Assembly (NCBI GenBank): GCA_015064025.1
Contig: SVSZ01000001.1
Span: 1,705-65,704 of the forward strand
Direction: 5' to 3'
Length of the DNA: 64,000 bases
DNA from: Oscillospiraceae bacterium
Lineage (GTDB): Bacteria > Bacillota > Clostridia > Oscillospirales > CAG-272
Positions 15,456 to 30,839 of this stretch are shown here, one piece after another (within the stretch, counting starts at the first letter, position 1; every line of letters begins with the position of its first letter). The notes under the pieces were generated by a model, which was given only the letters and a program-made list of their open reading frames with translations, did not search any database and had not been told where the DNA came from. Both the position numbers and the translations under genes were made by a program.

Positions 15456-17411
15456 TCAATGCAAGATAAGGATCACGGGGTAAAGGTGCTCGCAGACAAG
15501 ATCCATTGTGTATGCGCCGAACTCCCCTTCTTCAAATTTGACAGACTCAAGCGTGCCGTCGGGACAGAGACGCTCGACACTTGAAAGCTTTTTCTTTGAT
15601 ATGAGCACGGGCTGCTCGATGGGATCGCAGGAAAGATTGAAGACAGCACAGAACATGCCTCCGTCCTCCATATCCGCCGCGCGGAAATAGACCTCTTCAT
15701 CCCCGGGATAATACAGCGGCAATTCTCCCGCCACGTCAAGGATGCGGATCAATTGCTGTTTTCTCGAAAAGTTGAGAAAGGAAAACGCCTCTTGAATATT
15801 GAACGCCACCTTCGGTGAGCCCGCAAAAGTGAAGATCTTACCGCCAAGCGCATTGTCGAATACAAGAGAACCCGGGAACAGGCGTTCAAAGTTGACCTTG
15901 TCCACCGAATTCGTCACCGTTGAAAGCTCGCGCACAGAATCAAAGAGAGGGACAAGCTCGCGCACTCTTTGCTGTACTGTGCATTTATTTCCGTTCCCCC
16001 CAAGAAGCTCGTGCGTGGGAGTTTTCCCCGTCCACGCGCGAACACGCACGCCGATATGCTTCTCAAATCCGCGTTCGGCAAGATGCGCGGCGGCATCCGA
16101 TGCCAGCATCATGTTGCCGCGAAGCATTTCAAGGATCTCCTCATCCGAAAAAGCGGTATCACGCGTTCCCTCAAGACAAGCAACGCCGCCCGACTGCGTC
16201 GAAAAATACATGGGAAGCCCCAATCTTTCAAGAAGACATTTGCTCCAGTGATCGACGCCGTCGGAAGACTCCACCCAAGCGTCTCCCAGGGGAAACCTCG
16301 GCGTTGCACTGACAGGAATACGGAAGCCACGGTGCCTGAGTGTCGGAGCAAGCTCGGAAAGTGTCTGATAAAAGCCACGGTGCTTTCCGAGAATACGGCG
16401 GTACGCCTTGCCGCTTTCGGGCTCGTAAGCCGCCAAGCGTGTGATCCAGTGCTTAGCCCCCGTCGCACCTTCGATGATCGATCCCGTAAAATGTGTATGC
16501 AAAGAGCGCGCACCCGTGCTGTAGCGATTTTGCGGGCAGGTGTCGGTTTCGGCAAGCACCACGTCTGCCTTGCCCTCAAGCTTTGCGATGGAAGCTGCAC
16601 ATTTCAAAAAGCTGTGGCTGAAATACTTGGCACCCATAGGGGTATAGTTGGCGTTATTGATACGAAGCACCACGGGATTTCCTTCTCCCGCCATGATCTT
16701 GGCAATCTCCACACCAAATTCCACGCTGCTGCCGACCGTGCAATAAGAGCCGGGAATGGTGGGATCCACGCTGTCGATCGCCGCGCGCATAACACGTGCG
16801 CACTCAAGAAGAGAGTCCCTTTGCGTCTGCACAAACAGCTCCGACACCGCTCTTGCGCTCTCGGTTCGCTCGCTTACTGCGGCAAGAAGCGCTTCTCTTT
16901 CCATACGTACACCGAGGCTTCTTTCAAGCCTGTCCAGATGCAAGGGGCAGGCACATCCTCCACCCGTACGGTAAAGGAGTCTGAAATCATCATCCAGCAT
17001 AATATGCGACGGTGCATACGACGCCAATTTCTCAAACGTACGGCGGATATATTCACGAAAGCCCTCGTCCGCAGGACAGACAGTAAAGGTCTTTTCTCCG
17101 TCGACAAGCTTTACGTACTGCTGATACGGAAACAATTCCCCAAGCATCCAGCCATGCCCTATACTCGCCTGAACCAGAATTCCGTTCGGGATTCCCATTT
17201 GCGCAAGCCGCTCACGAAAAAGAGCATACTTCTCGCCAAGGATTCTTGCCTTATCTACGGGCGGATCTCCCTCGGGGACCAGCGTCATGGAAAACAGTGC
17301 ACAGGTCGCTACACCGCTCTCGTACTGCTCTTTGATATCCTCGCAGATTTCCTCCAAATGCTCCACGTCCAAAGGCATGACCGTATACAGCTGTAATTTT
17401 TGCTTTTCCAT
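15456..17411 (-). CDS. Hypothetical protein, 651 aa, unknown family
   Basis: I placed the start at ATG 17411 (MEKQKLQLYTVMPLDVEHL...) after a G-rich RBS. It has coherent composition and the same orientation as the 454-aa gene, which lies 106 nt downstream. No signal peptide. Confidence 0.6.
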   Translation of the reverse strand: MEKQKLQLYTVMPLDVEHLEEICEDIKEQYESGVATCALFSMTLVPEGDPPVDKARILGEKYALFRERLAQMGIPNGILVQASIGHGWMLGELFPYQQYVKLVDGEKTFTVCPADEGFREYIRRTFEKLASYAPSHIMLDDDFRLLYRTGGGCACPLHLDRLERSLGVRMEREALLAAVSERTESARAVSELFVQTQRDSLLECARVMRAAIDSVDPTIPGSYCTVGSSVEFGVEIAKIMAGEGNPVVLRINNANYTPMGAKYFSHSFLKCAASIAKLEGKADVVLAETDTCPQNRYSTGARSLHTHFTGSIIEGATGAKHWITRLAAYEPESGKAYRRILGKHRGFYQTLSELAPTLRHRGFRIPVSATPRFPLGDAWVESSDGVDHWSKCLLERLGLPMYFSTQSGGVACLEGTRDTAFSDEEILEMLRGNMMLASDAAAHLAERGFEKHIGVRVRAWTGKTPTHELLGGNGNKCTVQQRVRELVPLFDSVRELSTVTNSVDKVNFERLFPGSLVFDNALGGKIFTFAGSPKVAFNIQEAFSFLNFSRKQQLIRILDVAGELPLYYPGDEEVYFRAADMEDGGMFCAVFNLSCDPIEQPVLISKKKLSSVERLCPDGTLESVKFEEGEFGAYTMDLVCEHLYPVILILH

Positions 17412-17518
17412 GCACAAACCCCCGTGAATAGAATACACTTTGGTTACATTATAGCGTACCGTCAGTAAAAAATCAAGGGATTTTCTTCGAATTTTTTTCG
17501 TCAATCCGGCGCCCCTTC

Positions 17519-17547
17519 TTGACAAACAGAGCCTTTTGCGGTATAAT
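17519..17547 (+). promoter_or_regulatory. rnpB promoter
   Basis: Perfect TTGACA (17519-17524), 17 nt, TATAAT (17542-17547). Confidence 0.85.
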
Positions 17548-17550
17548 AAG

Positions 17551-17905
17551 GCGTAGCTTCGTTAAACGGTCGCGCGGTATGTTGCCGTAAGGTATTACCG
17601 TGAGGAAAGTCCGGGCTTCACAGGACAGGATAACTGATAACATCAGCCACGGGTAACCGTCGGGAAAGTGCAACAGAAATAAACCGCCGCCTATGCGGTA
17701 AGGATGGAAAGGCGAGGTAAGAGCTCACCCGTTCCTATGGTAACATAGGTCCGCTGTAAACCCTATCCGAAGCAACACCCCGTGAATTGCTCGTCCGGCA
17801 TATATTCGGGGGTGGCACGAAACCTCGGTTTCGAAGCTTCGCGGTGACGCGGAGCGAAGATTGATGACCGTTCACGACAGAACCCGGCTTACAGACGAAG
17901 CTATC
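17551..17905 (+). ncRNA. rnpB: RNase P RNA, bacterial class A
   Basis: P4 strands GAGGAAAGTCCGGGC and ACAGAACCCGGCTTA. GGTAAGAGCTCACC element. P1 pairing TAGCTTCGT / ACGAAGCTA. Ends are accurate to a few nt. Confidence 0.93.
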
Positions 17906-17947
17906 AAAAAAGCTGCCGCAAGCGAAAACCGTTTGCGGCAGCTTTTT
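17906..17947. terminator. Bidirectional terminator after rnpB
   Basis: aaaaa-AGCTGCCGCAA...TTGCGGCAGCT-ttttt. Confidence 0.85.
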
Positions 17948-17985
17948 ATCTAAAAAATGGAATAATTAAAAGCTTTCTCTAACCA

Positions 17986-18933
17986 CTATTCAAGTACAGT
18001 CTCTAAGCGGTACACCTCTAAGTACAGTTCGTGTCCGTAGTACGGTTGTATGGTTTTTTCGGCGTACAGCATAATCCCTTGCTTGGTTGCATACAAGTAA
18101 AAATCTGTATTGTCTTCTGTCTGGTCCTTGTTGTAACCGGCAATTTTTCGCCGCAAAAAATCCACGTCAATGCTTTCCAGATCCATATTGCGATTCCAAT
18201 AATGAATCCCAACAACATCACCGTTTTCTTTAAGTGAAACAATGAGGCGTTCCCCGGTATACACTTCACCAACGTAAATATCGTAACGAAGACCATATTG
18301 AAGAACACGCTCGGAAGAATCCTCGGGAACATAAAAACCGTCGTAACGCGTCCCCCCCACCATATACGTATAGCAAGAAAGGGTATACTTCTCAGGATGC
18401 CAACCGTATATATACTTCTCCATATACGTCTCCACCCATTCCACATATGCCTTAGAATCTGTCGGTGAAACGGGATTTCTTGCAATAGGATCATCTTCGC
18501 AACTTAACCGAAATGAAGTGTCATCCGGAGAAAGCCAAAGCTCTCCCCACCCGTTCTCTTGCTCATAGAAATCCCATGAATAATCGTAAGACGGATACTC
18601 TTTCGTTCTTTTGTATTCAAACCGATAGCTCTTTGAGCCAAAAATGAAGTTTACAGATTTGTCCATTCCTTCTTTCGTCTTTATTACACTATCGGGTCCT
18701 TGAGGCATCAAACGCCAAACGTTGCCTCGGACAAATTTGCATGGTTCCACAGGAGAGGAGGGTGGTTGGGATGGATCGACCGTCACGGTAAGGTCTTCAT
18801 TCATACTCGGATCGTTACCTTGCGTTTCGAGCAATGTGTCCGAGCTTCGGATTTCATTTTCGCAGGAAAGTATCGAAGCAGACAAGGCAAGCAAAAGAAG
18901 CAGACACAACATTCGCAAAAGCTTATTTTTCAC
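17986..18933 (-). CDS. Lipoprotein of unknown function
   Basis: Likely GTG start 18933, 5 nt after GGAGGG, giving VKNKLLRMLCLLLLLALSASILSC (lipobox). No motif I recognise. The ORF extends to 18954. Confidence 0.7.
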   Translation of the reverse strand: MKNKLLRMLCLLLLLALSASILSCENEIRSSDTLLETQGNDPSMNEDLTVTVDPSQPPSSPVEPCKFVRGNVWRLMPQGPDSVIKTKEGMDKSVNFIFGSKSYRFEYKRTKEYPSYDYSWDFYEQENGWGELWLSPDDTSFRLSCEDDPIARNPVSPTDSKAYVEWVETYMEKYIYGWHPEKYTLSCYTYMVGGTRYDGFYVPEDSSERVLQYGLRYDIYVGEVYTGERLIVSLKENGDVVGIHYWNRNMDLESIDVDFLRRKIAGYNKDQTEDNTDFYLYATKQGIMLYAEKTIQPYYGHELYLEVYRLETVLE

Positions 18934-18950
18934 ACTGCACCCTCCGTTTC

Positions 18951-21900
18951 TCAATTAAACGTTGCATTGACATTTCCGGCAATATAAGGATCTATGGTTG
19001 TATTATTCTCACCATAAACCTCATTCATTTTAAGATCAACCGCTTCACACGCTTCCTTTACTGTCTTTCCTGCTTCTAATTCCGCGAAGAAATATTCACA
19101 CCAATCATTCATTTGATTTGAAAGCACACTCAACTCAAACCCTATAACTACTTTCGCCCCCTTAGCATGCGTTGCGTTTACGAGATTATTGGAATCCTCC
19201 CTGCCCTCACCGGTCGAACACGCACCGTAAATAATCAAATCTATATTGGACAGGGCATCGTTCGGCAAACTTTGAAGCATAGATATATTTATTGGTTCAT
19301 TGGATGTTTCAATCCCGGTTTGAAAACCGTGTGTTCTGACAACAACAATTTCCGATTTTGTCATGTGATTGAGCAAGAAATTTTCATTCATACAAGTTTG
19401 TTTTGCATAAATATCCGTATATCCCATAGCTTCAAGATTTCCTATAACGGATGAATAAAACTTTGTACGATTATAAGCTTCGGGAATTGATATGATAGAA
19501 ACCTCATGATCAATTTCAATCAACCATTCATCAAGCGTATTACTATCCTGTGGATCCGCTAATTGCACCAAATCCACTCCACTTGAGGTGCTATTATACG
19601 GTAACGAAAGCGCCATTCCGCTTGCTTCCGAGCATTTTGGAACAAAGCGATAATTTCCACCATCTGTAATTTGCAGCTTCCACCTTCCGGCGTCACTAAC
19701 AGTGGACATTTGTACAATGGAAGCTCCGCTTGCAGTAGATCCGTTGGCAACGGAAACATATTTTGATGAATACAAAGATTTAATTGTATAATATCCGAGA
19801 CCAACATGATTAAAAACCCACTTTGCTTGAGGGCTCGTATGATATGCCCACTGTTGAATCCGCGCCGAATCCGCAGTTGACGGTCCCTCCACATCCATGT
19901 ATCTTTGAGAAGAAATATTTTGTACATGATACGTTCCGCTCGGTATGACTTGACCTACCATAATAGAAAATTTGTATTGATAATCGTTGTCGCCACTATC
20001 AGTAACAATAATATTGGTATACCCGTGCCCAACGCCTGTGATGCGACCGCTTGCATCAACTGTTGCAACATCGGTATTCTCGCTTTTCCAATGATGGGAG
20101 CTATTTGTTTTCCATGTCGCGTTGCTAGGTTGTACGGAAAGAGTAGGTGTATGAGAAGCACCTACAGCCATCCACGTCAACGTATCCGAGGCGGCTCTTG
20201 AAGTAGATTGCACCTCGATGATATTGTTTGCAAGTTTAGTCAGATACCATACGGTTTGGTTATAGCTTGATGAACTTGAGCTTTGTGCAGACATCATTCC
20301 CAATTCAAGTGCACTATCATTTTGAAGGTATGTAAGCACTTTGCTGTTGGCTTTGTTTTTTAAAATTGCGCCTCCGCCGGTTGCATAAGAAATCTGCCAA
20401 TGAAAGCCCGTATTCGCCTTATCATATCTTTTCAACTTCGAATCCTTATAAACGGCATATGTTGTCTTCCAATATGGGCGTATTACATAGCCAAGGGTAT
20501 CACGATATTCTATAATCCAACAACCACTTTCGTTCACTGACGATTGAAAGGTTGTTTCTGGTTCCGTTAACGAATCTCTTTTTTGAAGTTTCGAAATGTA
20601 AGTCCCCAAAACCTTGTTGCGTATTGTGTAATGTCCTCCAATATCACTTGTGACAATTTCAAGATATACGTTGCTATTCCCGGTGGCTTCCGTTGAATAA
20701 ATCGCACCTTCGTCTATCAAGTCCTCCGTTTGGCTCAATGCAAAACCATTTCTGGGGTTATTTTCTGCATTTGAAGTCGCGCCTGTATTGTACTTGGCCC
20801 ACCCGCGAACAATGTCGGTAACATCCATACTAAATGTATCACCGTATGTTACAACAACATTCGATGACACTCCGTCTGTGGTTGAGGCACCAGAAAACAA
20901 AGTGGAATTATTCACTGCAATTTGGGATTCATAATTTTGAGAAGATTGTACCATGGGATGTATATTCATTTGGGAGCGAATCTGTGCAACAGGAGTAAAA
21001 GAGACAGTCGCTCTTCCAATTTGATAGGGATTTAGGCTTTTAAACTGTCCTTGTGTCCCATAGAAATCGTAAAACTTATAAATAACCTTTCCTTGCCCCT
21101 CGGATAGGTTATGTTGTGACGAGTTAGATAATGCATAATTGTACAAAGAGCTGTTATTATAAAGTCCAATATCAATAATTGCATCGTATTCCGTATAAAC
21201 AGGTTCGCTTCCTTCATAAGTAACGTAAGAATTTTTCTCATTCACTATCACTGTCGGATCCACAAAAACAGGATATACAGTGTCCGCTGCTTTTAAAAAT
21301 GCCGCAGGAACGGTAATTAACATGGTATAACCGCCAGTGGCATTTTCCGTTATATCCAAATCACCGTATGCTGTTTTTCCGTTACTATCTTCGATGAGTA
21401 TTTTTTCAAAGTCGAACAGAAAATTTCCCTCCTCATCCAAAAGCCGCCATTCACCTTGTTCGGTTTTTATTGGAGCCAATCCAGAGGTTGTCAAAAGAAA
21501 TCTGAAGGAATATTTTCCGATATTTGACATTAAAACAATATCTTCTTTTATTCCTGAAAGTTGCGTTTGATATCTCAAAGCCGTGTTTGCACCAAATACT
21601 CCATTATAAACTATACTCTTTCCATCCGCACCAAGCTTCACAGGAGAAACAATGAGCGAGTTTTCCGGTTTCATGGACATAGAGTGATTTTCAAACGATA
21701 TCATAATACCGTTGGAAGCATTATTTCCAAAATATGCACTAAAACTATTTTCGGTCATTGCGTACGAATATCCTGCAAGTCCTGTTTCGGAAATACTCGT
21801 GTTCTTATCTCTGATTTCTCCATCAGATGTTATGTATTTTACAGGCTTATCGTATACGTATGAGGTTTTTGAACCATTTTGATTTTGATAAATTACAGTT

Positions 21901-21986
21901 TGTAAACTCTTCTCTTGCGCAAATAAACGATTAACGTGTCCCTTTTCAATTGTCTGTTCCAAGCTTACAGTTTCAGGTCTTGACAC
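18951..21986 (-). CDS. DNRLRE / ricin lectin / Big_2 / ricin lectin / CHAT-like (caspase-fold) protein; body of an interrupted gene
   Basis: YPVFVDPT; MDVTDIVRGWAKYNTG (DNRLRE-type); VATVDASGRITGVGHGYTNIIVT (Big_2); IQQWAY, GRWKL, DEWLI (ricin QxW-type). The C-terminus has IVVVRTHG ... LIIYGACSTGEG ... AKGAKVVIGF. Confidence 0.7.
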   Translation of the reverse strand: MSRPETVSLEQTIEKGHVNRLFAQEKSLQTVIYQNQNGSKTSYVYDKPVKYITSDGEIRDKNTSISETGLAGYSYAMTENSFSAYFGNNASNGIMISFENHSMSMKPENSLIVSPVKLGADGKSIVYNGVFGANTALRYQTQLSGIKEDIVLMSNIGKYSFRFLLTTSGLAPIKTEQGEWRLLDEEGNFLFDFEKILIEDSNGKTAYGDLDITENATGGYTMLITVPAAFLKAADTVYPVFVDPTVIVNEKNSYVTYEGSEPVYTEYDAIIDIGLYNNSSLYNYALSNSSQHNLSEGQGKVIYKFYDFYGTQGQFKSLNPYQIGRATVSFTPVAQIRSQMNIHPMVQSSQNYESQIAVNNSTLFSGASTTDGVSSNVVVTYGDTFSMDVTDIVRGWAKYNTGATSNAENNPRNGFALSQTEDLIDEGAIYSTEATGNSNVYLEIVTSDIGGHYTIRNKVLGTYISKLQKRDSLTEPETTFQSSVNESGCWIIEYRDTLGYVIRPYWKTTYAVYKDSKLKRYDKANTGFHWQISYATGGGAILKNKANSKVLTYLQNDSALELGMMSAQSSSSSSYNQTVWYLTKLANNIIEVQSTSRAASDTLTWMAVGASHTPTLSVQPSNATWKTNSSHHWKSENTDVATVDASGRITGVGHGYTNIIVTDSGDNDYQYKFSIMVGQVIPSGTYHVQNISSQRYMDVEGPSTADSARIQQWAYHTSPQAKWVFNHVGLGYYTIKSLYSSKYVSVANGSTASGASIVQMSTVSDAGRWKLQITDGGNYRFVPKCSEASGMALSLPYNSTSSGVDLVQLADPQDSNTLDEWLIEIDHEVSIISIPEAYNRTKFYSSVIGNLEAMGYTDIYAKQTCMNENFLLNHMTKSEIVVVRTHGFQTGIETSNEPINISMLQSLPNDALSNIDLIIYGACSTGEGREDSNNLVNATHAKGAKVVIGFELSVLSNQMNDWCEYFFAELEAGKTVKEACEAVDLKMNEVYGENNTTIDPYIAGNVNATFN

Positions 21987-21989
21987 ATC

Positions 21990-22238
21990 TTACGGTTCAA
22001 GAGACTGCAATTGTGAAAGAGGGAGTTCTCCTTCTCCAAGAGTAAAAAGTAGATTTTCATCAACCAAAGAAACTGAATTTGTAGCAGTATTTGCATCTAT
22101 CACTACTGTTGTCGAATCATTTAAAGTCTGGTCGGCAGCTACAACTGAAAGCGATGCAGAAAGGATCAATAACGTAACGCAAAGAAATGCAGATACAATT
22201 CTAAGCCACTTCATTTTCAATGTATACGATTTTTTCAT
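21990..22238 (-). CDS. Signal-peptide fragment in frame with the downstream 1,011-codon ORF
   Basis: AAGGAG RBS. MKKSYTLKMKWLRIVSAFLCVTLLILSASLSVVAADQ... It ends at TAA 21992-21990, and the same frame continues. Confidence 0.7.
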   Translation of the reverse strand: MKKSYTLKMKWLRIVSAFLCVTLLILSASLSVVAADQTLNDSTTVVIDANTATNSVSLVDENLLFTLGEGELPLSQLQSLEP

Positions 22239-22288
22239 AGCAATATGTCTCCTTTTCAAAAATGTTTTTTCGGTTCCAAAAAACACTT

Positions 22289-22348
22289 TTGGCGCATAGG
22301 CAACCGGAACCGCACATACGCAAATTAATTTAAGCCTATGCGCGCCAA
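22289..22348 (-). promoter_or_regulatory. Terminator-like / attenuator hairpin in the 5' leader of the cassette
   Basis: Arms 22348-22334 and 22301-22289 give 14-15 bp with a 2-nt bulge and a 32-nt loop. TGTTTTTTGG follows on the minus strand. Confidence 0.6.
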
Positions 22349-22407
22349 AGCAGCAAGAGCATACGGGGGCATATGCAGAACAACGTTATTACACAACATT
22401 TTTTCAT
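22336..22407 (-). CDS. 23-codon Cys-rich mini-ORF (candidate leader peptide)
   Basis: AGGAGG, 8 nt, then ATG. The peptide is MKKCCVITLFCICPRMLLLLWRA. The TAG stop lies inside the 5' arm of the hairpin. Too short for the ORF track. Confidence 0.5.
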   Translation of the reverse strand: MKKCCVITLFCICPRMLLLLWRA

Positions 22408-22483
22408 AACAAATACCTCCTCTTATCGTATTTTTGAAAATCACGAGCAGATTTTATTCACTATGCGCATGATTTTCACCATT

Positions 22484-22537
22484 ATTATATCAAAAATTGG
22501 TCACTTTGTCAAGGCTGTGTTTTGGTCAACTTGTCAA
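22484..22537 (-). promoter_or_regulatory. Consensus promoter with two 16-nt direct repeats
   Basis: On the minus strand: TTGACA (22512-22507), 17 nt, TATAAT (22489-22484). The repeats are TTGACAAGTTGACCAA (22537-22522) and TTGACAAAGTGACCAA (22512-22497). Confidence 0.75.
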
Positions 22538-22551
22538 CTTATCAGTAGTCA

Positions 22552-22591
22552 AGAAAAAAGAGGACAGAGAACATCACATCATTCTCTGTCC
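22552..22591 (-). terminator. Intrinsic terminator downstream of the LRR gene (inside the insertion)
   Basis: GGACAGAGAA / TTCTCTGTCC stem, then TCTTTTTTCTT on the minus strand. Confidence 0.8.
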
Positions 22592-22662
22592 CATTTAGCC
22601 GGTAGAAATTACGTTTTAAAGGCTGTCCTCTGCAAAAATCTTTGATGCAGCTTTTTGTTATT

Positions 22663-24075
22663 TTATTTTACTTCAAGAGCACTTTCAACACTTTCATTTC
22701 CCTTTTCAAAGGTAACGGAGCCCGCGGCGCTGACCGTTTCGACGGAGGTGCAACCGCGGAACGCCTCAGCCTCCACCGTCCGCACACCGCCGAGATCGAT
22801 CTCGGAAAGGGCGGAGCACCCCGAAAACGCGGATGCGGGAAGCACGGAAAGGCTTTGGGGCAGAACGACCCTTTCAAGTGAATCACAATTCATAAAGGCA
22901 TTGATTCCCATGGAAGAAAGACCTTTTCCGAAATCCACGGACACAAGCCCGTCACAGGCGAGAAAGGCGTTCTCACGTAAGGTCTTCAGCGAATTGGGAA
23001 GGACGACGGTGTAGAGCGCGTCACAGCCATAAAAGGCGCGGATACCGATCTCTGTAAGTCCCTCGGGAAGCACGACCTCACGCAGGCTCTTGCACTCGTA
23101 AAACGCATTGGTACCAAGTGTGCGGCATACGGGAAGCAACGTCACGCGCGAGAGAGAGAAAGGATAGTAACCTTCGGAAAAATCTGCGTATCTTGCACCG
23201 AATACGTACCCAAGATAGGTATTTTCCGTTTTCGTTCCGCCGACAAAGGGCAGGGTCATCTCCCGCAGGGCAATGCTCCCCTCAAGAGCGGCGAATTCGA
23301 TCTTTTCAAGCGCGTCACCAAAGGAAATTTTGGTGAGAGAGGTACAGTAGGACAAGGCATGCTCACCGACGAAGGTAAGCCCCTCCAGCCCTTCGATCAC
23401 CTCGAGAGACGCGCATTTTGTGATGGAAAACTTCTCAAGCCTTTCAAGGGACGAAGGCAGTGAAAGCGTGACCAGATCGTTACAGTCGTAAAGCGCGTAT
23501 GCGGGTAGGACGGTCATGTCTCCCGTCAAACGAAGATGCGCAAGACTTGCGGGAATGTCCAGCGGATTGTCTTCAAATCTCTCGGCGCCGAACAGCGTTC
23601 CGAGGAAGCAGTCCCCCTCCCCGTTCTTCCCCATCACGGGCGTTTCCAAGGCAAGAAGGCTCTTGCATCCCGCAAGGATCTCCTTCCCAACGCTTGTAAC
23701 GCTTTCGGGAATCACCAGCGCCTGAAGCGCCGTAAGATCACGAAAGGCACCGTCTCCGATCGCGACCACGGGCAAGCCCTCAATGCTTTTCGGAATCGAG
23801 ATCACCGTTGCGTCACCCGTATATCCCGTTACGGTGACCCCCTTTGCGTTCTTCGTGTAGGTCAGCGCCTCCGTCTCTGTGCTCTGTGTATCCAGAAGCG
23901 CCGATATCTCCTCGGTATAATCGGGCAAGCTCACAGGCTCCTCCGGGGTCGTATCGATCGGTGCGTCGCTCGTCGGCGTTTCGGGCTCGGCAGTCGGCAC
24001 CGCCGTACAGGAAACAAGCATGAGGAGGCACAGGAGCGTGCTGACGATATATATAAGAATACTCTTTCGATGCAT
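22663..24075 (-). CDS. BspA-type leucine-rich-repeat lipoprotein
   Basis: Start ATG 24075 gives MHRKSILIYIVSTLLCLLMLVSC (lipobox). Repeated I/VPxSVxxIGxxAFxxCxxL units follow. The ORF extends to 24390. Confidence 0.85.
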   Translation of the reverse strand: MHRKSILIYIVSTLLCLLMLVSCTAVPTAEPETPTSDAPIDTTPEEPVSLPDYTEEISALLDTQSTETEALTYTKNAKGVTVTGYTGDATVISIPKSIEGLPVVAIGDGAFRDLTALQALVIPESVTSVGKEILAGCKSLLALETPVMGKNGEGDCFLGTLFGAERFEDNPLDIPASLAHLRLTGDMTVLPAYALYDCNDLVTLSLPSSLERLEKFSITKCASLEVIEGLEGLTFVGEHALSYCTSLTKISFGDALEKIEFAALEGSIALREMTLPFVGGTKTENTYLGYVFGARYADFSEGYYPFSLSRVTLLPVCRTLGTNAFYECKSLREVVLPEGLTEIGIRAFYGCDALYTVVLPNSLKTLRENAFLACDGLVSVDFGKGLSSMGINAFMNCDSLERVVLPQSLSVLPASAFSGCSALSEIDLGGVRTVEAEAFRGCTSVETVSAAGSVTFEKGNESVESALEVK

Positions 24076-24250
24076 AACGTATTCCCTTTCTTCATATAGT
24101 TTACGGTTTATTGTACCATAAAAAGGCGCGCTGTGCAAGAGGAGTTTGCGATAATTTGCAATTATTTCAAATCCTTCACGCTTTCTTCTTGTAAAGTACG
24201 CAAAAACGTGGTACAATATTGTAAATACAGCAAACAGGGAGGAGGATCTT

Positions 24251-25216
24251 ATGCAAATCATTGCAGAGGGCGCGCTTGTCGGAATGTGCGTTCGTGACGT
24301 ATTGAAAAAACACCTCTCCCTTTCCACAAAAATGATGAAATACCTCAAATATGAAAACAACGGGATCGAGGTCAACGGAAAGCACTGCACGGTACGTTAT
24401 GTTCTTTGCAAGGGCGACGTGCTCACGGTCAGTACACAGGATCGGGAATCCTCCCCTGCGGTGGAGGCTGTTGATCTTCCCCTGGATATCCTCTATGAGG
24501 ATGACGAGCTTGTCGTTCCCGCCAAGGGAGCAAATATGCCGACGCATCCCTCGCATGACCATCACAGCGACACCGTAGCAAACGCGCTTGCTTACCGTTA
24601 TCTCAAAAGCGGAACGCCCTTCGTTTTCCGTCCCATCAACCGCCTTGACCGTAACACAAGCGGACTTTTGCTTATCGCGCGGAATAAGCGTACGGCGGCA
24701 CTGCTCACGCGTCAGCTGCAATCGGGCAACATTCGAAAGACCTATCTTGCTGTGCTTGACGGTGAAATGGAAACGGAGGGAGGCATCATTGATGCATGTC
24801 TTCACCGCACGCCCGAGAGCATCATCGTCCGCGAGGTCTGCCCACCCGACGCGCCCGACGCAGCCCCCGCAAGAACCGAATACACGGTGCTTTCCACGGG
24901 AAACGGGCATACGCTGGTGCTCGCTCATCCCATCACGGGGCGCACCCATCAGCTCCGCGTACATTTTTCGCACCTGGGCTATCCCATCACGGGAGACAAC
25001 CTTTACGGGACCCCCTCCCACCACATCGGGCGGCATGCGCTCCACGCATATGCCCTTTCCTTTTCACATCCGATCAGCGCATCTCCCATGCAGCTTTGCG
25101 CGCCGTTACCGCAGGATATGCAGGATTTGATCGCTCTTTTCTTCCCGAACTCACTCATGGAGGTATTGAATGAACACAGCCGAGAAAAGGAAGCACCGTC
25201 TTCCTCTCTTTTGTAA
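24251..25216 (+). CDS. RluA-family pseudouridine synthase with S4-like N-terminus
   Basis: HPSHDH..., NRLDRNTSGLLLIARN, GRTHQLRVH. Confidence 0.9.
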   Translation: MQIIAEGALVGMCVRDVLKKHLSLSTKMMKYLKYENNGIEVNGKHCTVRYVLCKGDVLTVSTQDRESSPAVEAVDLPLDILYEDDELVVPAKGANMPTHPSHDHHSDTVANALAYRYLKSGTPFVFRPINRLDRNTSGLLLIARNKRTAALLTRQLQSGNIRKTYLAVLDGEMETEGGIIDACLHRTPESIIVREVCPPDAPDAAPARTEYTVLSTGNGHTLVLAHPITGRTHQLRVHFSHLGYPITGDNLYGTPSHHIGRHALHAYALSFSHPISASPMQLCAPLPQDMQDLIALFFPNSLMEVLNEHSREKEAPSSSLL

Positions 25217-26276
25217 GATCATATATCTGACGCTTGGGGTCAGTGTGCTTCTTTACGTACTCTTTCTTTTGAGCGCCGATTTTGCCGACTTTTTCAACAA
25301 CACCGTAGGTCTTGCGGGAAGAGTGCTTCTCGGCACTCTCACAAGCATCCTCCCCTTTTCTCTTGCGGAAGCACTTCTTTTATTGCTCCCCGTTCTTCTC
25401 GTTACGGCATGTGTCATCGGTTACCGCCGTTACTGCGATTCATGGCGCGGGGTCTTTACCTATCTTGGAATTCTTCTCTCCTTTGTCGCCGTGATCCTCA
25501 ATATTTTTGTCTGGAACTTCGCCGCGGGATATTATACCCCCACGCTTGACCGCAAGCTGGAGCTTGCGCGCACCCCCGTAAAGGCTGAGGAGCTTTACCA
25601 AACCGCAGAGCTGCTCGCGAATGAATTGCACACGCTCGCGCCGATGCTCACTGCCAAAGAGGACGGAGAGACCGTCATGCCCTACTCCTATGCGGAAATG
25701 AACAAAAAGCTTCTTGACGCTTATGAGATCGCCTCCGAAAAATACGGTGCCTTTTCCACGTTTTCCTCCTCTGTCAAGCCCGTCATGCTCAGTGAGCCGA
25801 TGTCCTATACCCATATCACGGGCGTCTACACCTTCTTCACGGGAGAAGCCAATATCAACGTGAATTTTCCCGACTACACGATCCCCTATACGGCAGCACA
25901 CGAGCTTGCACATCAAAGAGGGATCGCACGTGAGGATGAAGCAAACTTCGTTGCCTTCCTCGTCTGCATGGAAGCGGATGATAGCTATATCCGCTACAGC
26001 GGCGTTCTGAATATGTACGAATACGTGATCTCGGCACTCCGCACGGCAGACGTTGAATTGTACCGAGAATCCTATCTCTCCCTTCCCGCATCCGTCCGCG
26101 CAGAGGAAACGGCATACAGTGCGTTCTTTGACAAGTATCGCGAAAACGTTGCGGCGACCGTCACACAGACGACCAACGACACCTACCTCAAAACTCAAGG
26201 TGCCTCTGCGGGAACTAAAAGCTACAGCATGGTGGTGGATCTTGCCGTCGCACTTTACCGTCCGCAATTCGACTGA
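25170..26276 (+). CDS. DUF3810-family membrane metalloprotein
   Basis: N-terminal TM helices; AAHELAHQRGIAREDEANFVAFLVC motif. Overlaps the rluA-family gene by 47 nt. GGAGGT RBS. Confidence 0.75.
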   Translation: MNTAEKRKHRLPLFCKIIYLTLGVSVLLYVLFLLSADFADFFNNTVGLAGRVLLGTLTSILPFSLAEALLLLLPVLLVTACVIGYRRYCDSWRGVFTYLGILLSFVAVILNIFVWNFAAGYYTPTLDRKLELARTPVKAEELYQTAELLANELHTLAPMLTAKEDGETVMPYSYAEMNKKLLDAYEIASEKYGAFSTFSSSVKPVMLSEPMSYTHITGVYTFFTGEANINVNFPDYTIPYTAAHELAHQRGIAREDEANFVAFLVCMEADDSYIRYSGVLNMYEYVISALRTADVELYRESYLSLPASVRAEETAYSAFFDKYRENVAATVTQTTNDTYLKTQGASAGTKSYSMVVDLAVALYRPQFD

Positions 26277-26482
26277 TCCCGCGACGGGCAAATTCAAGCC
26301 TTTTCGCATATACTGACATTGTCTCCCCGATGCGGAAAGATTTTATGTAAAAATCCGTAAAAAAATCAAAAAAATACTTTTCTTTTTGTGGATACTGTGA
26401 TATAATTAATATAATATACCATTCGAACTCAAAATTTCGAGAAAAGGAGCGGGAACCGCACGTCAGTTCCCTTAACATATCT

Positions 26483-27772
26483 ATGTCAACAAGGATGATC
26501 GTTCAAGGAGGAAAGCCGTTGCAGGGCGAGGTATTCGTCAGCGGAATGAAAAACGCGGCGCTTCCTATCCTTTTCGCAACGATACTGGTCGGTGACGCTT
26601 GCACGCTGGAAAACATTCCGGGTGTCAGTGACATCTCCACCTCCTTGGAGCTGCTGCGGCAAATGGGGGCGCAGATCACCTACCTCACCCCTACCACCGT
26701 CCGCATCGACACCTCTTACATCAGGGAGGGGGGGGCGCCCGATGAGCTTGTGCGCAAGCTGCGCGGCTCCTCTTATCTTCTGGGAGCGGAGCTCGGCAGA
26801 TTCGGAAAAACCAGGATCGCATGGCCCGGCGGCTGTGATTTCGGCGGATTTCGCCCGCTTGACCTTCACTTGAAGGGCTTCCGCGCGCTGGGTGCCACCA
26901 CCGAAGCCGAGGGCGGCTTCATTTGTGCCGAGGCGATCGACTGCCTTTGCGGTGGCACGGTATATTTTGATATTGCCTCTGTGGGCGCAACCGTCAACGT
27001 CATTCTCGCCGCAACCAAGGCAGAAGGGACTACGGTCATCGAAAACGCCGCACGTGAGCCCCACATCGTGGACCTTGCCAATTTTCTCAACGCTTGCGGT
27101 GCCAACATCACGGGCGCAGGTACGTCGGTCATCAAGATCCATGGGGTCACCTCTTTGCGTGGCTGTACCTACACCATCATTCCCGACATGATCGAGGCAG
27201 GCACCTTTATGGTCGCCGCCGCGGCAACGGGAGGCAACGTCCGCATTCGTTCGGTGATCCCGAAGCATCTGGAATCGGTCACGACCAAGCTTTGTGAAAT
27301 GGGAGTTGAGGTCATCGAGGAAGACGATTCCGTCGTTGTCAAAAGCGAGGGACGGCTTCAGAACGTCAATATTCAAACCCTTTACTACCCCGGCTTCCCC
27401 ACGGATATGCACCCGCAATTCGCCGTACTTCTCTGCATTGCAAACGGCATCGGTAATATCCACGAAAGCATTTGGGCGAGCCGCTTCCGCTATGCGGAGG
27501 AGCTTCGCAAAATGGGAGCTACCATCACGGTCGATGCACAAAATGCGACCGTCGTCGGTGTGGAACGCCTGACGGGTTCCGTTGTTGACGCGACCGATCT
27601 GCGCGCGGGTGCCGCTCTCGTCATTGCGGGACTTTGCGCAAAAGGAAAAACAGAGATCCGCGGCGTGGAGTATATCCGACGCGGATATGACAGCATCGTG
27701 GAAAAGCTTCAAGGGCTTGGAGCTGAGATCTCGGAGATCACCGTAGACGACACGACCGAATCTGAACAATAA
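26483..27772 (+). CDS. murA: UDP-N-acetylglucosamine 1-carboxyvinyltransferase
   Basis: VSGMKNAALPIL, WPGGCDFG (catalytic Cys loop), DLRAGAALVIAGL. Confidence 0.92.
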   Translation: MSTRMIVQGGKPLQGEVFVSGMKNAALPILFATILVGDACTLENIPGVSDISTSLELLRQMGAQITYLTPTTVRIDTSYIREGGAPDELVRKLRGSSYLLGAELGRFGKTRIAWPGGCDFGGFRPLDLHLKGFRALGATTEAEGGFICAEAIDCLCGGTVYFDIASVGATVNVILAATKAEGTTVIENAAREPHIVDLANFLNACGANITGAGTSVIKIHGVTSLRGCTYTIIPDMIEAGTFMVAAAATGGNVRIRSVIPKHLESVTTKLCEMGVEVIEEDDSVVVKSEGRLQNVNIQTLYYPGFPTDMHPQFAVLLCIANGIGNIHESIWASRFRYAEELRKMGATITVDAQNATVVGVERLTGSVVDATDLRAGAALVIAGLCAKGKTEIRGVEYIRRGYDSIVEKLQGLGAEISEITVDDTTESEQ

Positions 27773-28941: not shown

Positions 28942-30405
28942 TTATTTTAATCTTGGGAATTCCCCTTCAATCAAACACCAAATGTCGGTATCCCATTCCA
29001 TTCGATTTGAATAGAAATCAATTTTTTTAAAATCATCAATATGGGCAGGTGTACCGTTTTTAACAATCTCATTTCCCACAACAACTTGGGTATTTGAATA
29101 ATAACATGAAACAACTTCATTCTGAGACGGTATTATCGAACCGGCTTCACCTTCTTGTAAAATAACATCACCGACGGTCCAACAATGACTAATATTATTA
29201 TATCCTGTTCCAAAAAGCCCACCGGAACCAAGCAACCCTCCTGCATATCCGGAACTACTGCATATCTCAATATCACCGGTTGTATAACAATTTTTCACAG
29301 CAGAAGCAGAAATTCCAATCAGCCCGCCCGCTGTAATCGTACCCGTCCCATTTTGCGAATTGCTTATTTTTACTTCTGAATAGCAATTTTGAACTGTTGT
29401 TAAATTTCCGGAAGACTCTCCTATAAGACCTCCGATTCGAGCAGAAAAAGCCTTAGGTTGTTTTGATGGCACCACTGACGATACTGAAAAATCTATTATA
29501 CCTTGAGAATAACTAGTCTCGATAGGTTTATTTCCTGTATAGTACCCTGCCAAACCACCTAACCATTGACTCGAACCGCCGTTTTCGTGCGTAGCATCAT
29601 AATATGCATTAATAGATACATCAGACGAGCAATGCGCTATCCCGCCCGTACTTCCGGCGACTCCGCCAATGAAAAATTCTTTTCCAAAGGACAAATTTAT
29701 TTTCCCTTCCACAGAACAATTTTCAATACCGCCTGTATTTTCAGCTACAAGCCCCCCTACATAAACAGTTCCGTATTCGGTTGAATCTATATCAATAAGG
29801 AGACCGGTGATATTTAGATTTTCTATTTTCCCTTCTGCATAGCCAAAAAGCCCCGCCCATGATACGTCATATTCTCGTATCTGATTCTTTTCTTTTTTTA
29901 GCGATTTTTCAGTCAGCAGAACGTTTGAAACGGTATAACCATTTCCATCAAACCATCCGGAAAATACCGTTCTGGGTGTAGCACCAATGGGAGTGATCGA
30001 ACGATTATTCATATCAATATGATTTGCCAGTGAAATTTTTACACCCGCAAGATCAGAACCGCCATTCACTATATCGATCAATCCCGCGAATTGTTCCGCC
30101 GTAGAAATAACGAAATCCAATTCTATGACACTATACCATGATGTATCGCTCTCACCACTCCACAATGAACAATTACAGATTGAGCAAATATTATCGACAT
30201 AATTATGTGTAGAACAAAACTGCTCATGACCATTCAAATCATTGCTCATATCTAAATTTGAGATTTCCTCATTGGCATCTTTATTCGAATCGCTCTCTTC
30301 GGTTATAATACTATTTTTATGATTCAAAGCGTTTGACGTGCTATCGCATGCAATCATGGAAAATAACAAAAGTACTGTAAAAGCAAGTGCAAAAATCTTT
30401 TTCAT
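28942..30405 (-). CDS. GLUG-motif repeat lipoprotein
   Basis: GGAGG RBS. MKKIFALAFTVLLLFSMIAC (lipobox). Repeats GGLVAENTGGIENC, GGVAGSTGGIAHC, GGLIGESSG..VQNCY, GGLIGISASAVKNCY and GGLLGSGG. Low-GC region. Confidence 0.8.
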   Translation of the reverse strand: MKKIFALAFTVLLLFSMIACDSTSNALNHKNSIITEESDSNKDANEEISNLDMSNDLNGHEQFCSTHNYVDNICSICNCSLWSGESDTSWYSVIELDFVISTAEQFAGLIDIVNGGSDLAGVKISLANHIDMNNRSITPIGATPRTVFSGWFDGNGYTVSNVLLTEKSLKKEKNQIREYDVSWAGLFGYAEGKIENLNITGLLIDIDSTEYGTVYVGGLVAENTGGIENCSVEGKINLSFGKEFFIGGVAGSTGGIAHCSSDVSINAYYDATHENGGSSQWLGGLAGYYTGNKPIETSYSQGIIDFSVSSVVPSKQPKAFSARIGGLIGESSGNLTTVQNCYSEVKISNSQNGTGTITAGGLIGISASAVKNCYTTGDIEICSSSGYAGGLLGSGGLFGTGYNNISHCWTVGDVILQEGEAGSIIPSQNEVVSCYYSNTQVVVGNEIVKNGTPAHIDDFKKIDFYSNRMEWDTDIWCLIEGEFPRLK

Positions 30406-30484
30406 TTTTTCCTCCAAAAAATAACCATTAATAAAAGCACAACCAAATCATAAAATCACAATTCAAAATGTCTGTGCTTTTAAT

Positions 30485-30513
30485 ATTTTAACCTATTTCG
30501 GGTTAAATGTCAA
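30485..30513 (-). promoter_or_regulatory. Promoter of the GLUG lipoprotein gene
   Basis: On the minus strand: TTGACA (30513-30508), 17 nt, TAAAAT (30490-30485). Confidence 0.6.
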
Positions 30514-30521
30514 TAACCTAA

Positions 30522-30557
30522 AACAGATTATTCTATAATATTTAAAAATAATCTGTT
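30522..30557. promoter_or_regulatory. Operator-like inverted repeat around the XRE gene -10 box
   Basis: AACAGATTATT (30522-30532) and AATAATCTGTT (30547-30557) form a perfect 11-bp inverted repeat. The 14-bp spacer contains TATAAT (30534-30539). Confidence 0.6.
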
Positions 30558-30567
30558 GGAGCTAAAA

Positions 30568-30780
30568 ATGAAATATTCAAGAATTCGTGATCTAAGAGAA
30601 GATAGAGATATCAACCAAACTCAAATTGCCAAAATGTTGGGGATGTCACAAACCGGATATTCGAAATATGAAACGGGCGAAAACGACATCCCAACTTCGA
30701 TTTTGATAAAGCTCGCAAGATTTTACAACACAAGCATTGATTATTTATTGGGAGAAACAAACGATCCAAAAAGGCATTAA
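30568..30780 (+). CDS. Small XRE-family HTH regulator
   Basis: MKYSRIRDLREDRDINQTQIAKMLGMSQTGYSKYETGENDIP. GGAG lies 7 nt before ATG 30568. Confidence 0.85.
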   Translation: MKYSRIRDLREDRDINQTQIAKMLGMSQTGYSKYETGENDIPTSILIKLARFYNTSIDYLLGETNDPKRH

Positions 30781-30839
30781 CAAAAAAGTATCCCGAACAC
30801 AAAAAACAAGCTCGGAATTCTAAAAAAGTCTTGACTTCA

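Follow-up and report, generated by a model that had tools for sequence, protein, structure and literature searches.

The segment 22537-22239 of the window, by which we mean the whole 64 kb stretch of DNA analysed here (Oscillospiraceae bacterium, GCA_015064025.1, SVSZ01000001.1), constitutes the promoter and leader of an operon with two genes that was acquired horizontally, all leader features being read on the minus strand. From the comparison with homologous loci, the short upstream ORF (uORF) within this segment most likely serves as a ribosome-sensing leader of an undescribed kind rather than being an ORF arisen by chance. We hold it to be reasonably probable that this is a translated cis-regulatory leader in which the terminating ribosome would melt a hairpin containing the stop codon and probably also a helix that covers the Shine-Dalgarno sequence (SD) of the main gene. 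An initial annotation of this stretch had likened the layout to a leader-peptide attenuator controlling the lectin/CHAT gene, and this class of explanation has turned out to be the best supported one, with the module found in 12 relatives, covariation in its stem and terminators of canonical build in nine relatives. The leader has no match in Rfam and appears to be a new form of ribosome-dependent attenuation.

The promoter and the downstream operon

The consensus TTGACA-17-TATAAT promoter of the initial annotation was found at the coordinates given there. It is of the sigma-A type (22484-22512), with a -35 box TTGACA at 22512-22507, a 17-nt spacer and a -10 box TATAAT at 22489-22484, and it reaches a score of 12/12; a TG at 22492-22491 makes the -10 box an extended one (TG-n-TATAAT). 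Only two sites with this score exist in the 10 kb that were scanned (17000-27000), the other one driving rnpB. Transcription would be expected to start near 22477. When 12 leaders were checked with a regular expression, nine of them showed a TTGACA or TTGACT -35 box together with a TAnnnT -10 box, 45-85 nt 5' of the uORF start codon.

The main gene (18951-22238) encodes a signal peptide, an N-terminal part of ~600 aa without assigned function, a Big_2 domain, a ricin-type lectin domain and a weak C-terminal CHAT-like match. Its stop codon is overlapped by 4 nt by the start of a partner gene (17986-18954) for a protein of 322 aa with no family match, and a partner gene of 308-426 aa is also located 3' of the lectin gene in L001, L007, L143, L144 and L146. 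NCBIfam and PDB sequence searches with both cassette proteins returned lectin and Ig-like domains only, and an exact-protein look-up of the lectin/CHAT gene of the window gave no record. The island consists of the lectin gene and its partner and contains no regulator gene. Neither in it nor among the promoter-side neighbours checked, which encode an LRR_5 protein, a DUF3810 protein and an EPSP synthase, was an RRNPP/PrgX-type receptor gene found. The main gene carries an in-frame TAA at 21992-21990, which counts against the explanation preferred here.

The leader ORF and its hairpin

Direct reading bears out the 23-codon ORF of the initial annotation and its ribosome binding site. The ORF (22336-22407) begins with ATG at 22407, ends with TAG at 22338-22336 and encodes MKKCCVITLFCICPRMLLLLWRA; its SD AGGAGG (22416-22421) is placed 8 nt 5' of the ATG. 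Four of the 23 codons specify Cys, and Leu likewise occurs four times, each time with another codon (CUC, UUG, CUG and CUU). Tandem repeats are absent from this uORF, which contains A6 and C5 runs only.

The last codons of the ORF and its TAG stop belong to a conserved hairpin (22288-22349) and fall within its 5' arm, UUUGGC(GC)GCAUAGGC; the 3' arm is GCCUAUGCGCCAAA. In the core of this hairpin GCGCAUAGGC (22343-22334) pairs with GCCUAUGCGC (22301-22292), and the TAG starts at +5 of the core 5' arm. The extended stem (UUUGGC..GCCAAA) comprises 14 bp with a 2-nt bulge and has a dG of -22.6 kcal/mol, so the arms and the 32-nt loop had been described correctly; inside this 32-nt stretch, at 22321-22312, another sequence resembling the 3' arm is present, GCGUAUGUGC. 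RNA folding, which had been proposed as a check, gave z = -4.6 versus shuffles for the leader 22480-22225. Upstream of the hairpin, the leader begins with a 5'-terminal stem-loop (22436-22477, GAAAAUCAUG/CGUGAUUUUC, dG -14.2), the apical part of which holds an additional GCGCAUAG copy at 22468-22461, exactly where an extra copy of the arm core had been noticed before. Across the leaders, five additional GCAUAR copies are observed versus 1.4 expected (P ~0.015).

The hairpin had also been called terminator-like. As a hairpin it stands, but for the copy in the window terminator function is uncertain, because the U6 run (22283-22278) is offset and paired elsewhere: it is not adjacent to the stem, lying 4 nt past the extended stem and 7 nt past the core stem, and it forms the 5' side of another hairpin, rich in A/U (22257-22291, CAAAAGUGUUUUUU/AAAAAACAUUUUUG, dG -13.1), whose GAACCG(A/U)AAAAA block is common to L015. 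The folding models suggest that the window copy may be a poor terminator.

When the window sequence was left out of the covariance model, 22280-22355 still came out as the best match of the 64 kb (16.7 bits), albeit with an E-value of only ~0.04 and with a higher score on the wrong strand, an effect of the palindromic stem. A permissive Rfam search of 21500-23500 returned nothing below E = 0.85, with all matches far under the gathering scores, whereas the whole window at gathering score yielded rnpB and one tRNA only.

Conservation of the module in relatives

Relatives of the lectin/CHAT-like gene, with 25-49% identity, are found in MAGs of rumen and gut Clostridia. Absence of the ORF and the hairpin from homologous loci had been named by the initial annotation as evidence against its reading; the opposite is observed, as 12 distinct relatives share the module of promoter, SD, ORF and a stop codon in or at the base of the hairpin 5' arm. 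In detail, their uORFs have 22-35 codons, with the stop falling between -1 and +7 of the 5' arm, and 35-86 nt separate the hairpin from the main start. All 12 homologous uORFs are preceded by an SD-like match, which is never shorter than 4 nt and has 5-6 nt in most cases. The hairpin core is near-invariant (CGCAUAR/YUAUGCG). When 2.43 Mb were scanned on both strands, independently of any motif, for an SD and ATG followed by 15-40 codons and by a stop codon located within the 5' arm of a stem-loop with 10 bp or more, 13 distinct matches were obtained, 12 of them these leaders, the window included, which leaves a background of 1 match per 2.4 Mb. A metagenome scan returned mostly distant relatives and the hairpin in L081 only.

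Covariation in homologues, another check proposed earlier, was found in the stem. Of all cells in the stem alignment 94% are paired, both-side changes occur in 6 of the 12 pairs, and the covariation score was reached by 0/500 shuffles. Four sequences have U.G at one stem position, a combination that pairs on the sense strand only, and L149 shows a compensatory U-A to C-G change within the otherwise invariant core. A U-tract directly follows the stem in nine relatives (L003, L011, L018, L023, L053, L057, L058, L068 and L081), where stem and U-tract have the composition of a canonical intrinsic terminator. As in the window, an adjoining U-tract is missing in L001, L014, L015 and L069.

The reading frame of the uORF is preserved as well. 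L006 and L010 differ by one 3-nt indel within the uORF, whereas the indels outside it measure 2, 2, 1, 4, 1 and 4 nt; the uORFs of L053, L057, L058 and L068 all have 31 codons and no indel despite highly variable blocks. Their variable columns number 11, 7 and 13 at codon positions 1, 2 and 3, a weak bias. On the level of the peptides, the N-terminal halves vary freely and the C-terminal parts are conserved, and in most uORFs a Leu/Ile/Phe-rich stretch is located 3-8 codons before the stop. Hydrophobicity of the peptide is not conserved, L018 (MKMNQSNIHQAAGKRRLARPCMPA) and L069 (MRILNHTNRPSRAYARTHGNNTRA) being hydrophilic.

In L053, L057 and L058 the CGCAUAA core is kept out of frame, and in three to five further leaders, termed type 2 (L003, L011/L143, L146 and L023), the hairpin is kept with no ORF before it. 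The core must therefore be constrained by something besides the Ala and stop codons. A MAFFT alignment of the type-2 5' leaders revealed no clear global conservation; blocks conserved between L144, L146 and L003 are recognised by eye only, and none of the four type-2 loci searched against Rfam matched a relevant family.

The SD of the main gene and a predicted sequestering helix

The SD AAGGAG (22254-22249) and the start codon ATG (22238-22236) of the signal-peptide ORF, together spanning 22236-22254, had been annotated correctly. A second likely output of the leader, the pairing of this SD with uORF codons 15-18, had been missed. These codons form a pyrimidine-rich segment, GUAUGCUCUU (22355-22364), and in the predicted minimum free energy structure 22364-22355 pairs with 22253-22243. 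The probability of the SD being paired with the uORF is 0.95 for the window, a value reached by 17% of codon shuffles, so that for the window alone the pairing is not significant. The corresponding values are 0.77 for L014 (reached by 13% of codon shuffles), 0.85 for L149 (5%) and 0.99 for L015 (0/40). This pairing is absent from the folding models of L001, L006, L018, L053-L068 and L069. SD sequestration as a rule for the whole family was consequently dismissed, since it is limited to the sub-clade of the window and two type-2 loci.

Proposed mechanism and alternative explanations

We propose that the strong SD drives translation of the 23-codon ORF. The final codons of this ORF, together with its UAG, are part of the hairpin 5' arm (core CGCAUAG/CUAUGCG). 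A ribosome nearing the end of the ORF would unwind and then occupy the base of the hairpin, and the same ribosome would probably open the helix between codons 15-18 (CUCUU) and the main-gene SD. With the ribosome in place the hairpin would be blocked and the main SD free; with no leader translation the hairpin would form and the main SD would remain paired. The formed hairpin is predicted to terminate transcription in those relatives where a U-tract adjoins the stem, and possibly weakly in the window. Since the ribosome at the end of the ORF would control both hairpin and SD, expression of the operon would be tied to leader translation and ribosome dwell time. For Bacillus subtilis, uncoupling of transcription and translation has been reported; if these Clostridia behave in the same way, antitermination by the ribosome would require a pause of RNA polymerase, and none was identified.

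Several other explanations compete with this mechanism. The ribosome might not simply terminate but be arrested: in a nascent-peptide sensor the leader C-terminus (R or K at -9, a hydrophobic run, Ala-stop) would stall it at the UAG, possibly in answer to a small molecule, in the manner of TnaC, SecM or MifM; while stalled, the ribosome would prevent both the hairpin and the SD helix from closing. The conserved C-terminal parts next to variable N-terminal halves would suit such a sensor, as would the peptide lengths of 19-35 residues, which by estimate roughly fit within the ribosomal exit tunnel. R or K is found 9 residues before the stop in the window, L001, L006/L010, L014, L015, L018 and L069, i.e. 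in 7/9 independent in-frame uORFs at a position picked post hoc among few and related sequences; it is encoded by differing codons (CGU, AAA, CGC, AGG and AGA), and L149 has R at equal distance from its GCA codon. The type-2 uORFs end in PLLL[RL]x before the stop, with Pro and the first Leu varying synonymously. However, L068 and L081 are without R or K at -9, L053, L057 and L058 stop two codons sooner with another C-terminus, L149 lacks the UAG and reads on for four codons, and a known arrest motif is absent. The Leu codons CUC-UUG are almost fixed, which points towards a constraint at the RNA level, namely the anti-SD sequence. Taken together, we consider an arrest sensor unlikely. Equally unlikely is a wider version of it, in which the leaders belong to an undescribed nascent-peptide/hairpin family that moves with the mobile secreted-lectin cassette: the ribosome would be held at Ala-UAG within the CGCAUAR hairpin by the [R/K]-hydrophobic C-terminus, termination and SD unmasking would both be controlled, and type 2 would use the same hairpin as an expression platform behind a structured RNA. 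A metabolite or a core-recognising factor might also be involved.

An amino-acid-starvation attenuator, where stalling at the Cys codons (4/23) or at LLLL decides between terminator and antiterminator, seems to us more doubtful still. The window and L014 have four Cys each, and the initial annotation had called the mini-ORF Cys-rich, but the uORFs of the relatives contain 0-4 Cys, with several, such as L001, L006 and L069, having none. As the Cys count is not conserved, a Cys-sensing design is unlikely. The Leu/Ile/Phe-rich stretch of most uORFs speaks in its favour; the Leu run of the window, made up of four distinct codons, is not a run of one regulatory codon. A candidate antiterminator (GGCGGUUUAU:AUAAACCGCU) is present in L053, L057, L058 and L068, and L081 (z -4.0) and L069 (z -3.1) have a segment complementary to the 5' arm, whereas no significant antiterminator was found in L001, L006, L014 or the window, where the best upstream candidate partner of the 5' arm has z = -0.1 versus shuffles. 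Nor are the downstream genes, for a secreted lectin-type protein and its partner, biosynthetic ones.

Two further explanations are the least probable. In the first, the product of the mini-ORF would itself be functional, as a membrane peptide, a type-I toxin or an exported SHP/PrgQ-like pheromone, the hairpin would be the terminator of this small gene, and the operon would be expressed by read-through. The order of promoter, small ORF, hairpin and secreted-protein gene recalls prgQ-IRS1 of pCF10; the MKK and hydrophobic stretch of the window peptide resemble short hydrophobic pheromone precursors, and two repeats overlap the -35 box like operators. Membrane peptide and type-I toxin had already been offered as alternatives by the initial annotation and are disfavoured by the hydrophilic uORF peptides of L018 and L069 and by the promoter scan, which lists no promoter-like site on the plus (antisense) strand within 22225-22540. 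The freely diverging N-terminal halves, the lack of a regulator gene in the two-gene island and the lack of conservation of the promoter repeats also argue against a functional peptide, which we regard as very improbable. We would say the same of the idea that only the RNA matters, with the CGCAUAR hairpin as a terminator or processing site recognised by protein or RNA and the ORF incidental or untranslated. It would explain why the core hardly varies in L053, L057 and L058, where it is out of frame, why the hairpin is kept without a preceding ORF in type 2 and why leaders, L149 included, carry extra core copies. On the other side, an SD and ATG ORF ends at the hairpin in 12 of ~16 hairpin-bearing leaders, as compared with a chance rate of ~0.003 per site (a rough estimate) and the scan background of 1 per 2.4 Mb, and indels are in frame within the ORFs and not so outside. 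A precedent for the RNA alone is tet(M), where the long-assumed leader peptide has been reported to be without ribosome binding or regulatory effect (bioRxiv 10.1101/2021.03.24.436905).

If the preferred mechanism, a terminating ribosome that melts the hairpin and frees the main SD, is correct, the uncultured Clostridia of gut and rumen, in which few mechanisms of regulation have been described, would gain a cis-regulatory module that is easily recognised and widely distributed. It would be notable for a stop codon that is a fixed part of a hairpin whose core is invariant and for being co-inherited with a horizontally mobile secreted-protein operon. The module would provide a compact natural test case for ribosome-dependent antitermination in Firmicutes, where coupling is thought to be loose, and the conservation of the CGCAUAR core out of frame and without an ORF hints at a recognition step beyond current attenuation models. 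Its practical value would be modest, consisting of better annotation of small ORFs and leaders and of a part that could be reused for translation-gated expression.

Comparison with known systems

A close natural parallel is the pil1 operon of S. gallolyticus, which is turned on by leader peptides with a stop in or near the terminator (Danne et al. 2014, PMC3894217). There, a stem-loop terminator separates leader and operon, as a putative one does in the window, and in the ON state the leader stop is within or next to the terminator so that the ribosome prevents the hairpin; the window correspondingly has a promoter-proximal short ORF with its own SD and a stop in the stem. In contrast to pil1, which switches by phase-variable GCAGA repeats that shift the frame, the window is without such repeats, its stop is hard-wired in the 5' arm, its hairpin has a conserved core sequence and its U-run is not adjacent to the stem; there is no sequence similarity to pil1. 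The effect of stop proximity itself has been measured in E. coli, where relocating the stop codon so that it lay 5 bp ahead of a terminator reduced termination from ~90% to <10% in a translation-dependent manner (Li et al. 2015, PMC4824070). The physical principle, repression by a terminating ribosome of a terminator a few bp past the stop codon, is supplied by this case, but it is an engineered construct and not a natural family, and it relies on transcription-translation coupling.

Like the trp, his and leu attenuators, the leaders combine an ORF with a terminator or, in the window, a putative one, and L053-L068, L081 and L069 carry a complement of the 5' arm embedded in the ORF. They differ from these attenuators in having no conserved run of regulatory codons; moreover, the window is without a detectable antiterminator, its stop is in the arm of the putative terminator itself instead of upstream, and the regulated genes are not biosynthetic. 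With SecM-secA, MifM-yidC2 and ErmCL-ermC the window shares a uORF whose 3' part is predicted to pair with the downstream SD, which a lingering ribosome would expose. In the window, however, the helix strands are separated by ~100 nt and two hairpins, a Sec/YidC or antibiotic-resistance context and a known arrest motif are missing, the peptide is too short for reaching the translocon, and stalling is only proposed here. TnaC, a leader peptide of ~24 residues with a W12/D16/P24 motif, senses tryptophan and blocks Rho-dependent termination. The window leader resembles it in peptide length, in the proposed regulation with the ribosome at the stop and possibly in conserved residues at fixed C-terminal distances, but the W12/D16/P24 motif is not present. 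The short putative leader ORF orf12 of tet(M)/Tn916 likewise extends over terminator-like structures 5' of a mobile Firmicutes gene; it differs in being tied to the antibiotic response and has no sequence similarity, and recent data question its translation (bioRxiv 10.1101/2021.03.24.436905).

Repeats in and around the promoter

Two 16-nt direct repeats (22497-22537) consist of TTGACAAGTTGACCAA at 22537-22522 and TTGACAAAGTGACCAA at 22512-22497, the second one containing the -35 box. They had been described as operator-like; their presence and position are confirmed, but the operator idea was abandoned, as no counterpart exists in the 11 other homologous leaders. With up to 2 mismatches they are the sole matches within the 64 kb, with up to 3 mismatches 6 matches are found versus 2.0 expected, and by a looser 14-nt test some repeat arises in 2.4% of shuffles. 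A dispersed repeat of the REP/MITE type was also rejected, since GCGCATAGGC with at most 1 mismatch occurs three times in the 64 kb, which is chance level. Finally, an inverted-repeat match between 17518-17549 and 22482-22513 represents two consensus promoters, one of them that of rnpB, and not the ends of an element.

A conserved leader upstream of the lectin gene

All the features that the initial annotation had listed on the minus strand were found where it had placed them. The promoter (TTGACA at 22512-22507, a 17-nt spacer and TATAAT at 22489-22484, with a TG two bases upstream giving an extended -10) scores 12/12, as does only one further site in the scanned 10-kb region, which drives the RNase P RNA. 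Two 16-nt direct repeats (22537-22522 and 22512-22497, minus strand) are 14/16 identical and have no other close matches within the 64 kb; they had been described as duplicated and operator-like, and the duplication is indeed present but not conserved, with no counterpart in the 11 other leaders examined. Further down the same strand, AGGAGG (22421-22416) lies 8 nt ahead of the ATG (22407) of a 23-codon upstream ORF (uORF), the TAG of which (22338-22336) is held within the 5' arm GCGCAUAGGC (22343-22334) of a hairpin with the 3' arm GCCUAUGCGC (22301-22292). Its stem comprises 14 bp if a 2-nt bulge is allowed (dG -22.6 kcal/mol), and the fold of the whole leader is more stable than 200/200 shuffles (z = -4.6). 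Because the nearest U6 run (22283-22278) is 4-7 nt away from the stem and itself serves as 5' arm in another, A/U-rich hairpin (22291-22257), the term terminator-like is fair, but the copy in the window is not a canonical terminator. The leader also contains an extra copy of the hairpin core (22468-22461) and a second 3'-arm-like copy (22321-22312). A 90-codon ORF on the plus strand (22373-22645), opposite the leader, the promoter and an upstream terminator, is most likely spurious.

About 150 loci with relatives of the lectin gene (25-49% identical) were gathered by exact-protein look-ups, one genome scan and one metagenome scan; they are mostly MAG or metagenome contigs and their sequences are phylogenetically related. 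The same anatomy, consisting of a TTGACA promoter, a strong Shine-Dalgarno (SD) sequence, an ORF of 22-35 codons with its stop at -1 to +7 of the 5' arm and a distance of 35-86 nt from the hairpin to the main gene, is common to 12 distinct loci (the window, L001, L006, L010, L014, L018, L053, L057, L058, L068, L069 and L081), and variants of it occur in L015, L148 and L149. When the fetched DNA and the window (2.43 Mb over both strands) were scanned irrespective of motif for an SD and ATG followed by 15-40 codons with the stop within the 5' arm of a hairpin that has 10 bp or more, 13 distinct cases were obtained, 12 of which are these leaders. The ORF and the hairpin are thus present at homologous loci, and on sequence comparison a chance origin of this anatomy appears excluded.

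In L057, a 12-kb locus contains two copies of the whole leader with the gene start, inverted relative to each other (about 4530-4740, plus strand, and about 10800-11000, minus strand), which reflects either an inverted duplication or a fault of assembly. In L013 (about 4630-4715) a complete 29-nt promoter (TTGACA..TAATATAAT) is tandemly duplicated; the family member downstream of it lacks the uORF/hairpin module.

Conservation of the hairpin and of the uORF

Six near-invariant pairs form the foot of the hairpin (C-G, G-C, C-G, A-U, U-A or U.G, and A-U, i.e. CGCAUA/UAUGCG), and the pairs flanking this core vary jointly and freely between A-U, G-C, C-G and U-A. In an alignment of 12 sequences from which the window was left out, pairing was found in 94% of the cells and changes on both sides at 6/12 pairs; the covariation score was reached by 0/500 shuffles, and pairing fell to 21-57% in shifted registers. 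The U.G pair, present in four sequences, pairs solely on the mRNA strand. In L149 (268-400) a compensatory change from U-A to C-G lies within the core itself (GCGCACAG/CUGUGCGC); it abolishes the UAG, and the uORF runs on for four codons up to a UGA located in the loop, so that its end is still within the hairpin. A leave-one-out covariance model built without the window ranked 22280-22355 first in the window, with an E of only about 0.04. A dimeric DNA operator is ruled out because the arms are 6-59 nt apart. In nine relatives a U-tract directly follows the stem, making these hairpins intrinsic terminators; this adjacent tract is missing in the window, L001, L014, L015 and L069.

Translation of the uORF is indicated by evidence that is indirect but consistent. 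An SD-like sequence matching over 4 nt or more precedes the ORF in all members (5-6 nt in most). Between L006 and L010 the sole indel within the ORF is 3 nt long, and the six outside it are of 2, 2, 1, 4, 1 and 4 nt; L053, L057, L058 and L068 keep 31 codons with no indel despite very variable blocks. The window, L015 and L149 have a coding core CGU-xUG-CUC-UUx in identical frame, around which all length differences are multiples of three, as judged from a by-eye codon comparison that drew on the sequences, pairwise alignment not itself displaying such differences.

The peptide, which the initial annotation had alternatively taken for a small hydrophobic membrane peptide or a type-I-toxin-like product, is a different matter. 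The N-terminal halves diverge freely among members, hydrophobicity is not conserved (the peptides of L018 and L069 are hydrophilic) and the number of Cys residues ranges from 0 to 4, so that the Cys-richness of the window copy is no family trait; all this argues against a membrane peptide, a toxin or a pheromone and against Cys sensing. In 7/9 independent in-frame members the ninth residue before the stop is R or K, for which five different codons are used; this is suggestive but, like several other patterns described here, was noticed post hoc.

A probable ribosome-gated leader

In the shared design, a terminating ribosome would sit at the base of the hairpin. When a stop codon was placed 5 bp ahead of a terminator in E. 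coli, the efficiency of termination dropped from about 90% to less than 10%, an effect that required translation (PMC4824070), and in S. gallolyticus leader peptides stopping within or near a terminator turn on the pil1 operon (PMC3894217). Together with these precedents, the design makes translation-dependent antitermination the natural reading for relatives with an adjacent U-tract. Some relatives also carry, embedded in the ORF, a stretch with complementarity to the 5' arm (GGCGGUUUAU:AUAAACCGCU in L053-L068; L081, z -4.0; L069, z -3.1); no such ORF-embedded partner was found in the window (z -0.1).

In the minimum free energy fold of the window leader, uORF codons 15-18 (GUAUGCUCUU, 22364-22355) pair with the SD region of the lectin gene (AGGAG-A-CAUAU, 22253-22243), and this predicted helix, a feature of the sub-clade of the window, encloses both hairpins. 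Pairing of the SD with the uORF has a predicted probability of 0.95 in the window, 0.77 in L014, 0.99 in L015 and 0.85 in L149, values reached by 17%, 13%, 0/40 and 5% of codon shuffles, respectively; the prediction for the window alone is weak, and the four loci together are moderately persuasive. The Leu codons CUC-UUG are near-fixed, which would fit an anti-SD role, and they recur in the uORFs of the type-2 leaders (see below), which end in ..PLLL[RL]x-stop.

The suggestion that the layout resembles a leader-peptide attenuator has thus held up as a class, the ORF and hairpin being kept in 12 loci, and a ribosome-gated leader is, on computational evidence, the best model and a rather probable one for the window. 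It would have two possible outputs, the hairpin or weak terminator and the unmasking of the SD, each of these taken singly being less probable than the class. The pil1 leader/terminator is closest in its working, but its phase-variable repeats are absent here, and in the SD-pairing aspect there is a likeness to arrest-peptide systems such as SecM, MifM and ErmCL. The present element contains no known arrest motif. It has neither regulatory codon runs nor a biosynthetic target, and an Rfam search with the leader gave no match. We would class it as a variety of ribosome-dependent attenuation, which appears to define a leader family specific to the mobile lectin cassette.

Some features are left over by the ribosome-gated model. 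The CGCAUAR core is retained out of frame in L053, L057 and L058 and without a preceding ORF in the type-2 leaders (L003, L011/L143, L146 and L023). Extra core copies are more frequent in the leaders than expected (5 observed versus 1.4, P about 0.015), a pattern to which the copy at 22468-22461 in the window may belong; the extra GCGCACA copy of L149, 3' of the 3' arm, agrees with its own mutated core, and second 3'-arm-like copies are also found in L006 and L010. These observations suggest alternative pairings or a factor recognising the core.

The type-2 leaders (L003, 2500-2680; L143, about 640-820; L144, about 150-330; L146, about 1150-1340) begin with a conserved structured RNA of ~130 nt, followed by a CGCAUAA hairpin with U-tract, a 19-25-codon uORF and the main gene. 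The RNA, with the conserved blocks CGAACAACAA, CCCGACAACA and UUGUUGCCGAGUUGUU, had no match in an Rfam search and may represent an element not yet described, either riboswitch-like or protein-binding.

The cassette and its genomic surroundings

The main gene extends on the minus strand from ATG 22238 to 18951 (a frame of 1,096 codons) and encodes a signal peptide, ~600 aa without assigned function, a Big_2 domain, a ricin-type lectin and, at the C-terminus, a region with a weak CHAT-like match. An in-frame TAA interrupts the gene at codon 83 (21992-21990, minus strand), a position occupied by Leu in relatives (TTA to TAA), and the public annotation therefore starts from GTG 21986, without the signal peptide. 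In the closest relative, L010 (about 4840), CAA to TAA at codon 27 has arisen independently, so that early nonsense mutations are found in two separate cases in this gene family. For the overlapping downstream gene (322 aa) no family match was found.

The contig is assigned to a Ruminococcaceae/Oscillospiraceae MAG, and the gene pair lies in a stretch of low GC content (37-44% versus about 52%). This island (about 17950-22660) contains the leader and the two genes only, with no integrase or transposase gene, and is flanked by rnpB (17554-17907) and an LRR_5 gene. Homologous two-gene cassettes are found in unrelated neighbourhoods (alaS, thyA, aspartokinase, spo0A), which fits with horizontal transfer of cassette and leader as a unit. 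Both island edges (17925-17947 and 22634-22656) carry an imperfect 23-nt direct repeat (78% identity), which could be an insertion scar.

The neighbouring plus-strand RNase P RNA is of bacterial class A (231.7 bits), with a 12/12 consensus promoter at 17519-17547 and a terminator hairpin at 17907-17947. An apparent inverted repeat of 32 nt between this region and the promoter of the leader was rejected as a real repeat, as it merely reflects two consensus promoters. The start of the listed ORF 15456-17525 overlaps the rnpB promoter. A second low-GC stretch (29000-31007, 35-40%) adjoins a tRNA gene (30935-31007, plus strand) and is possibly another acquired segment.
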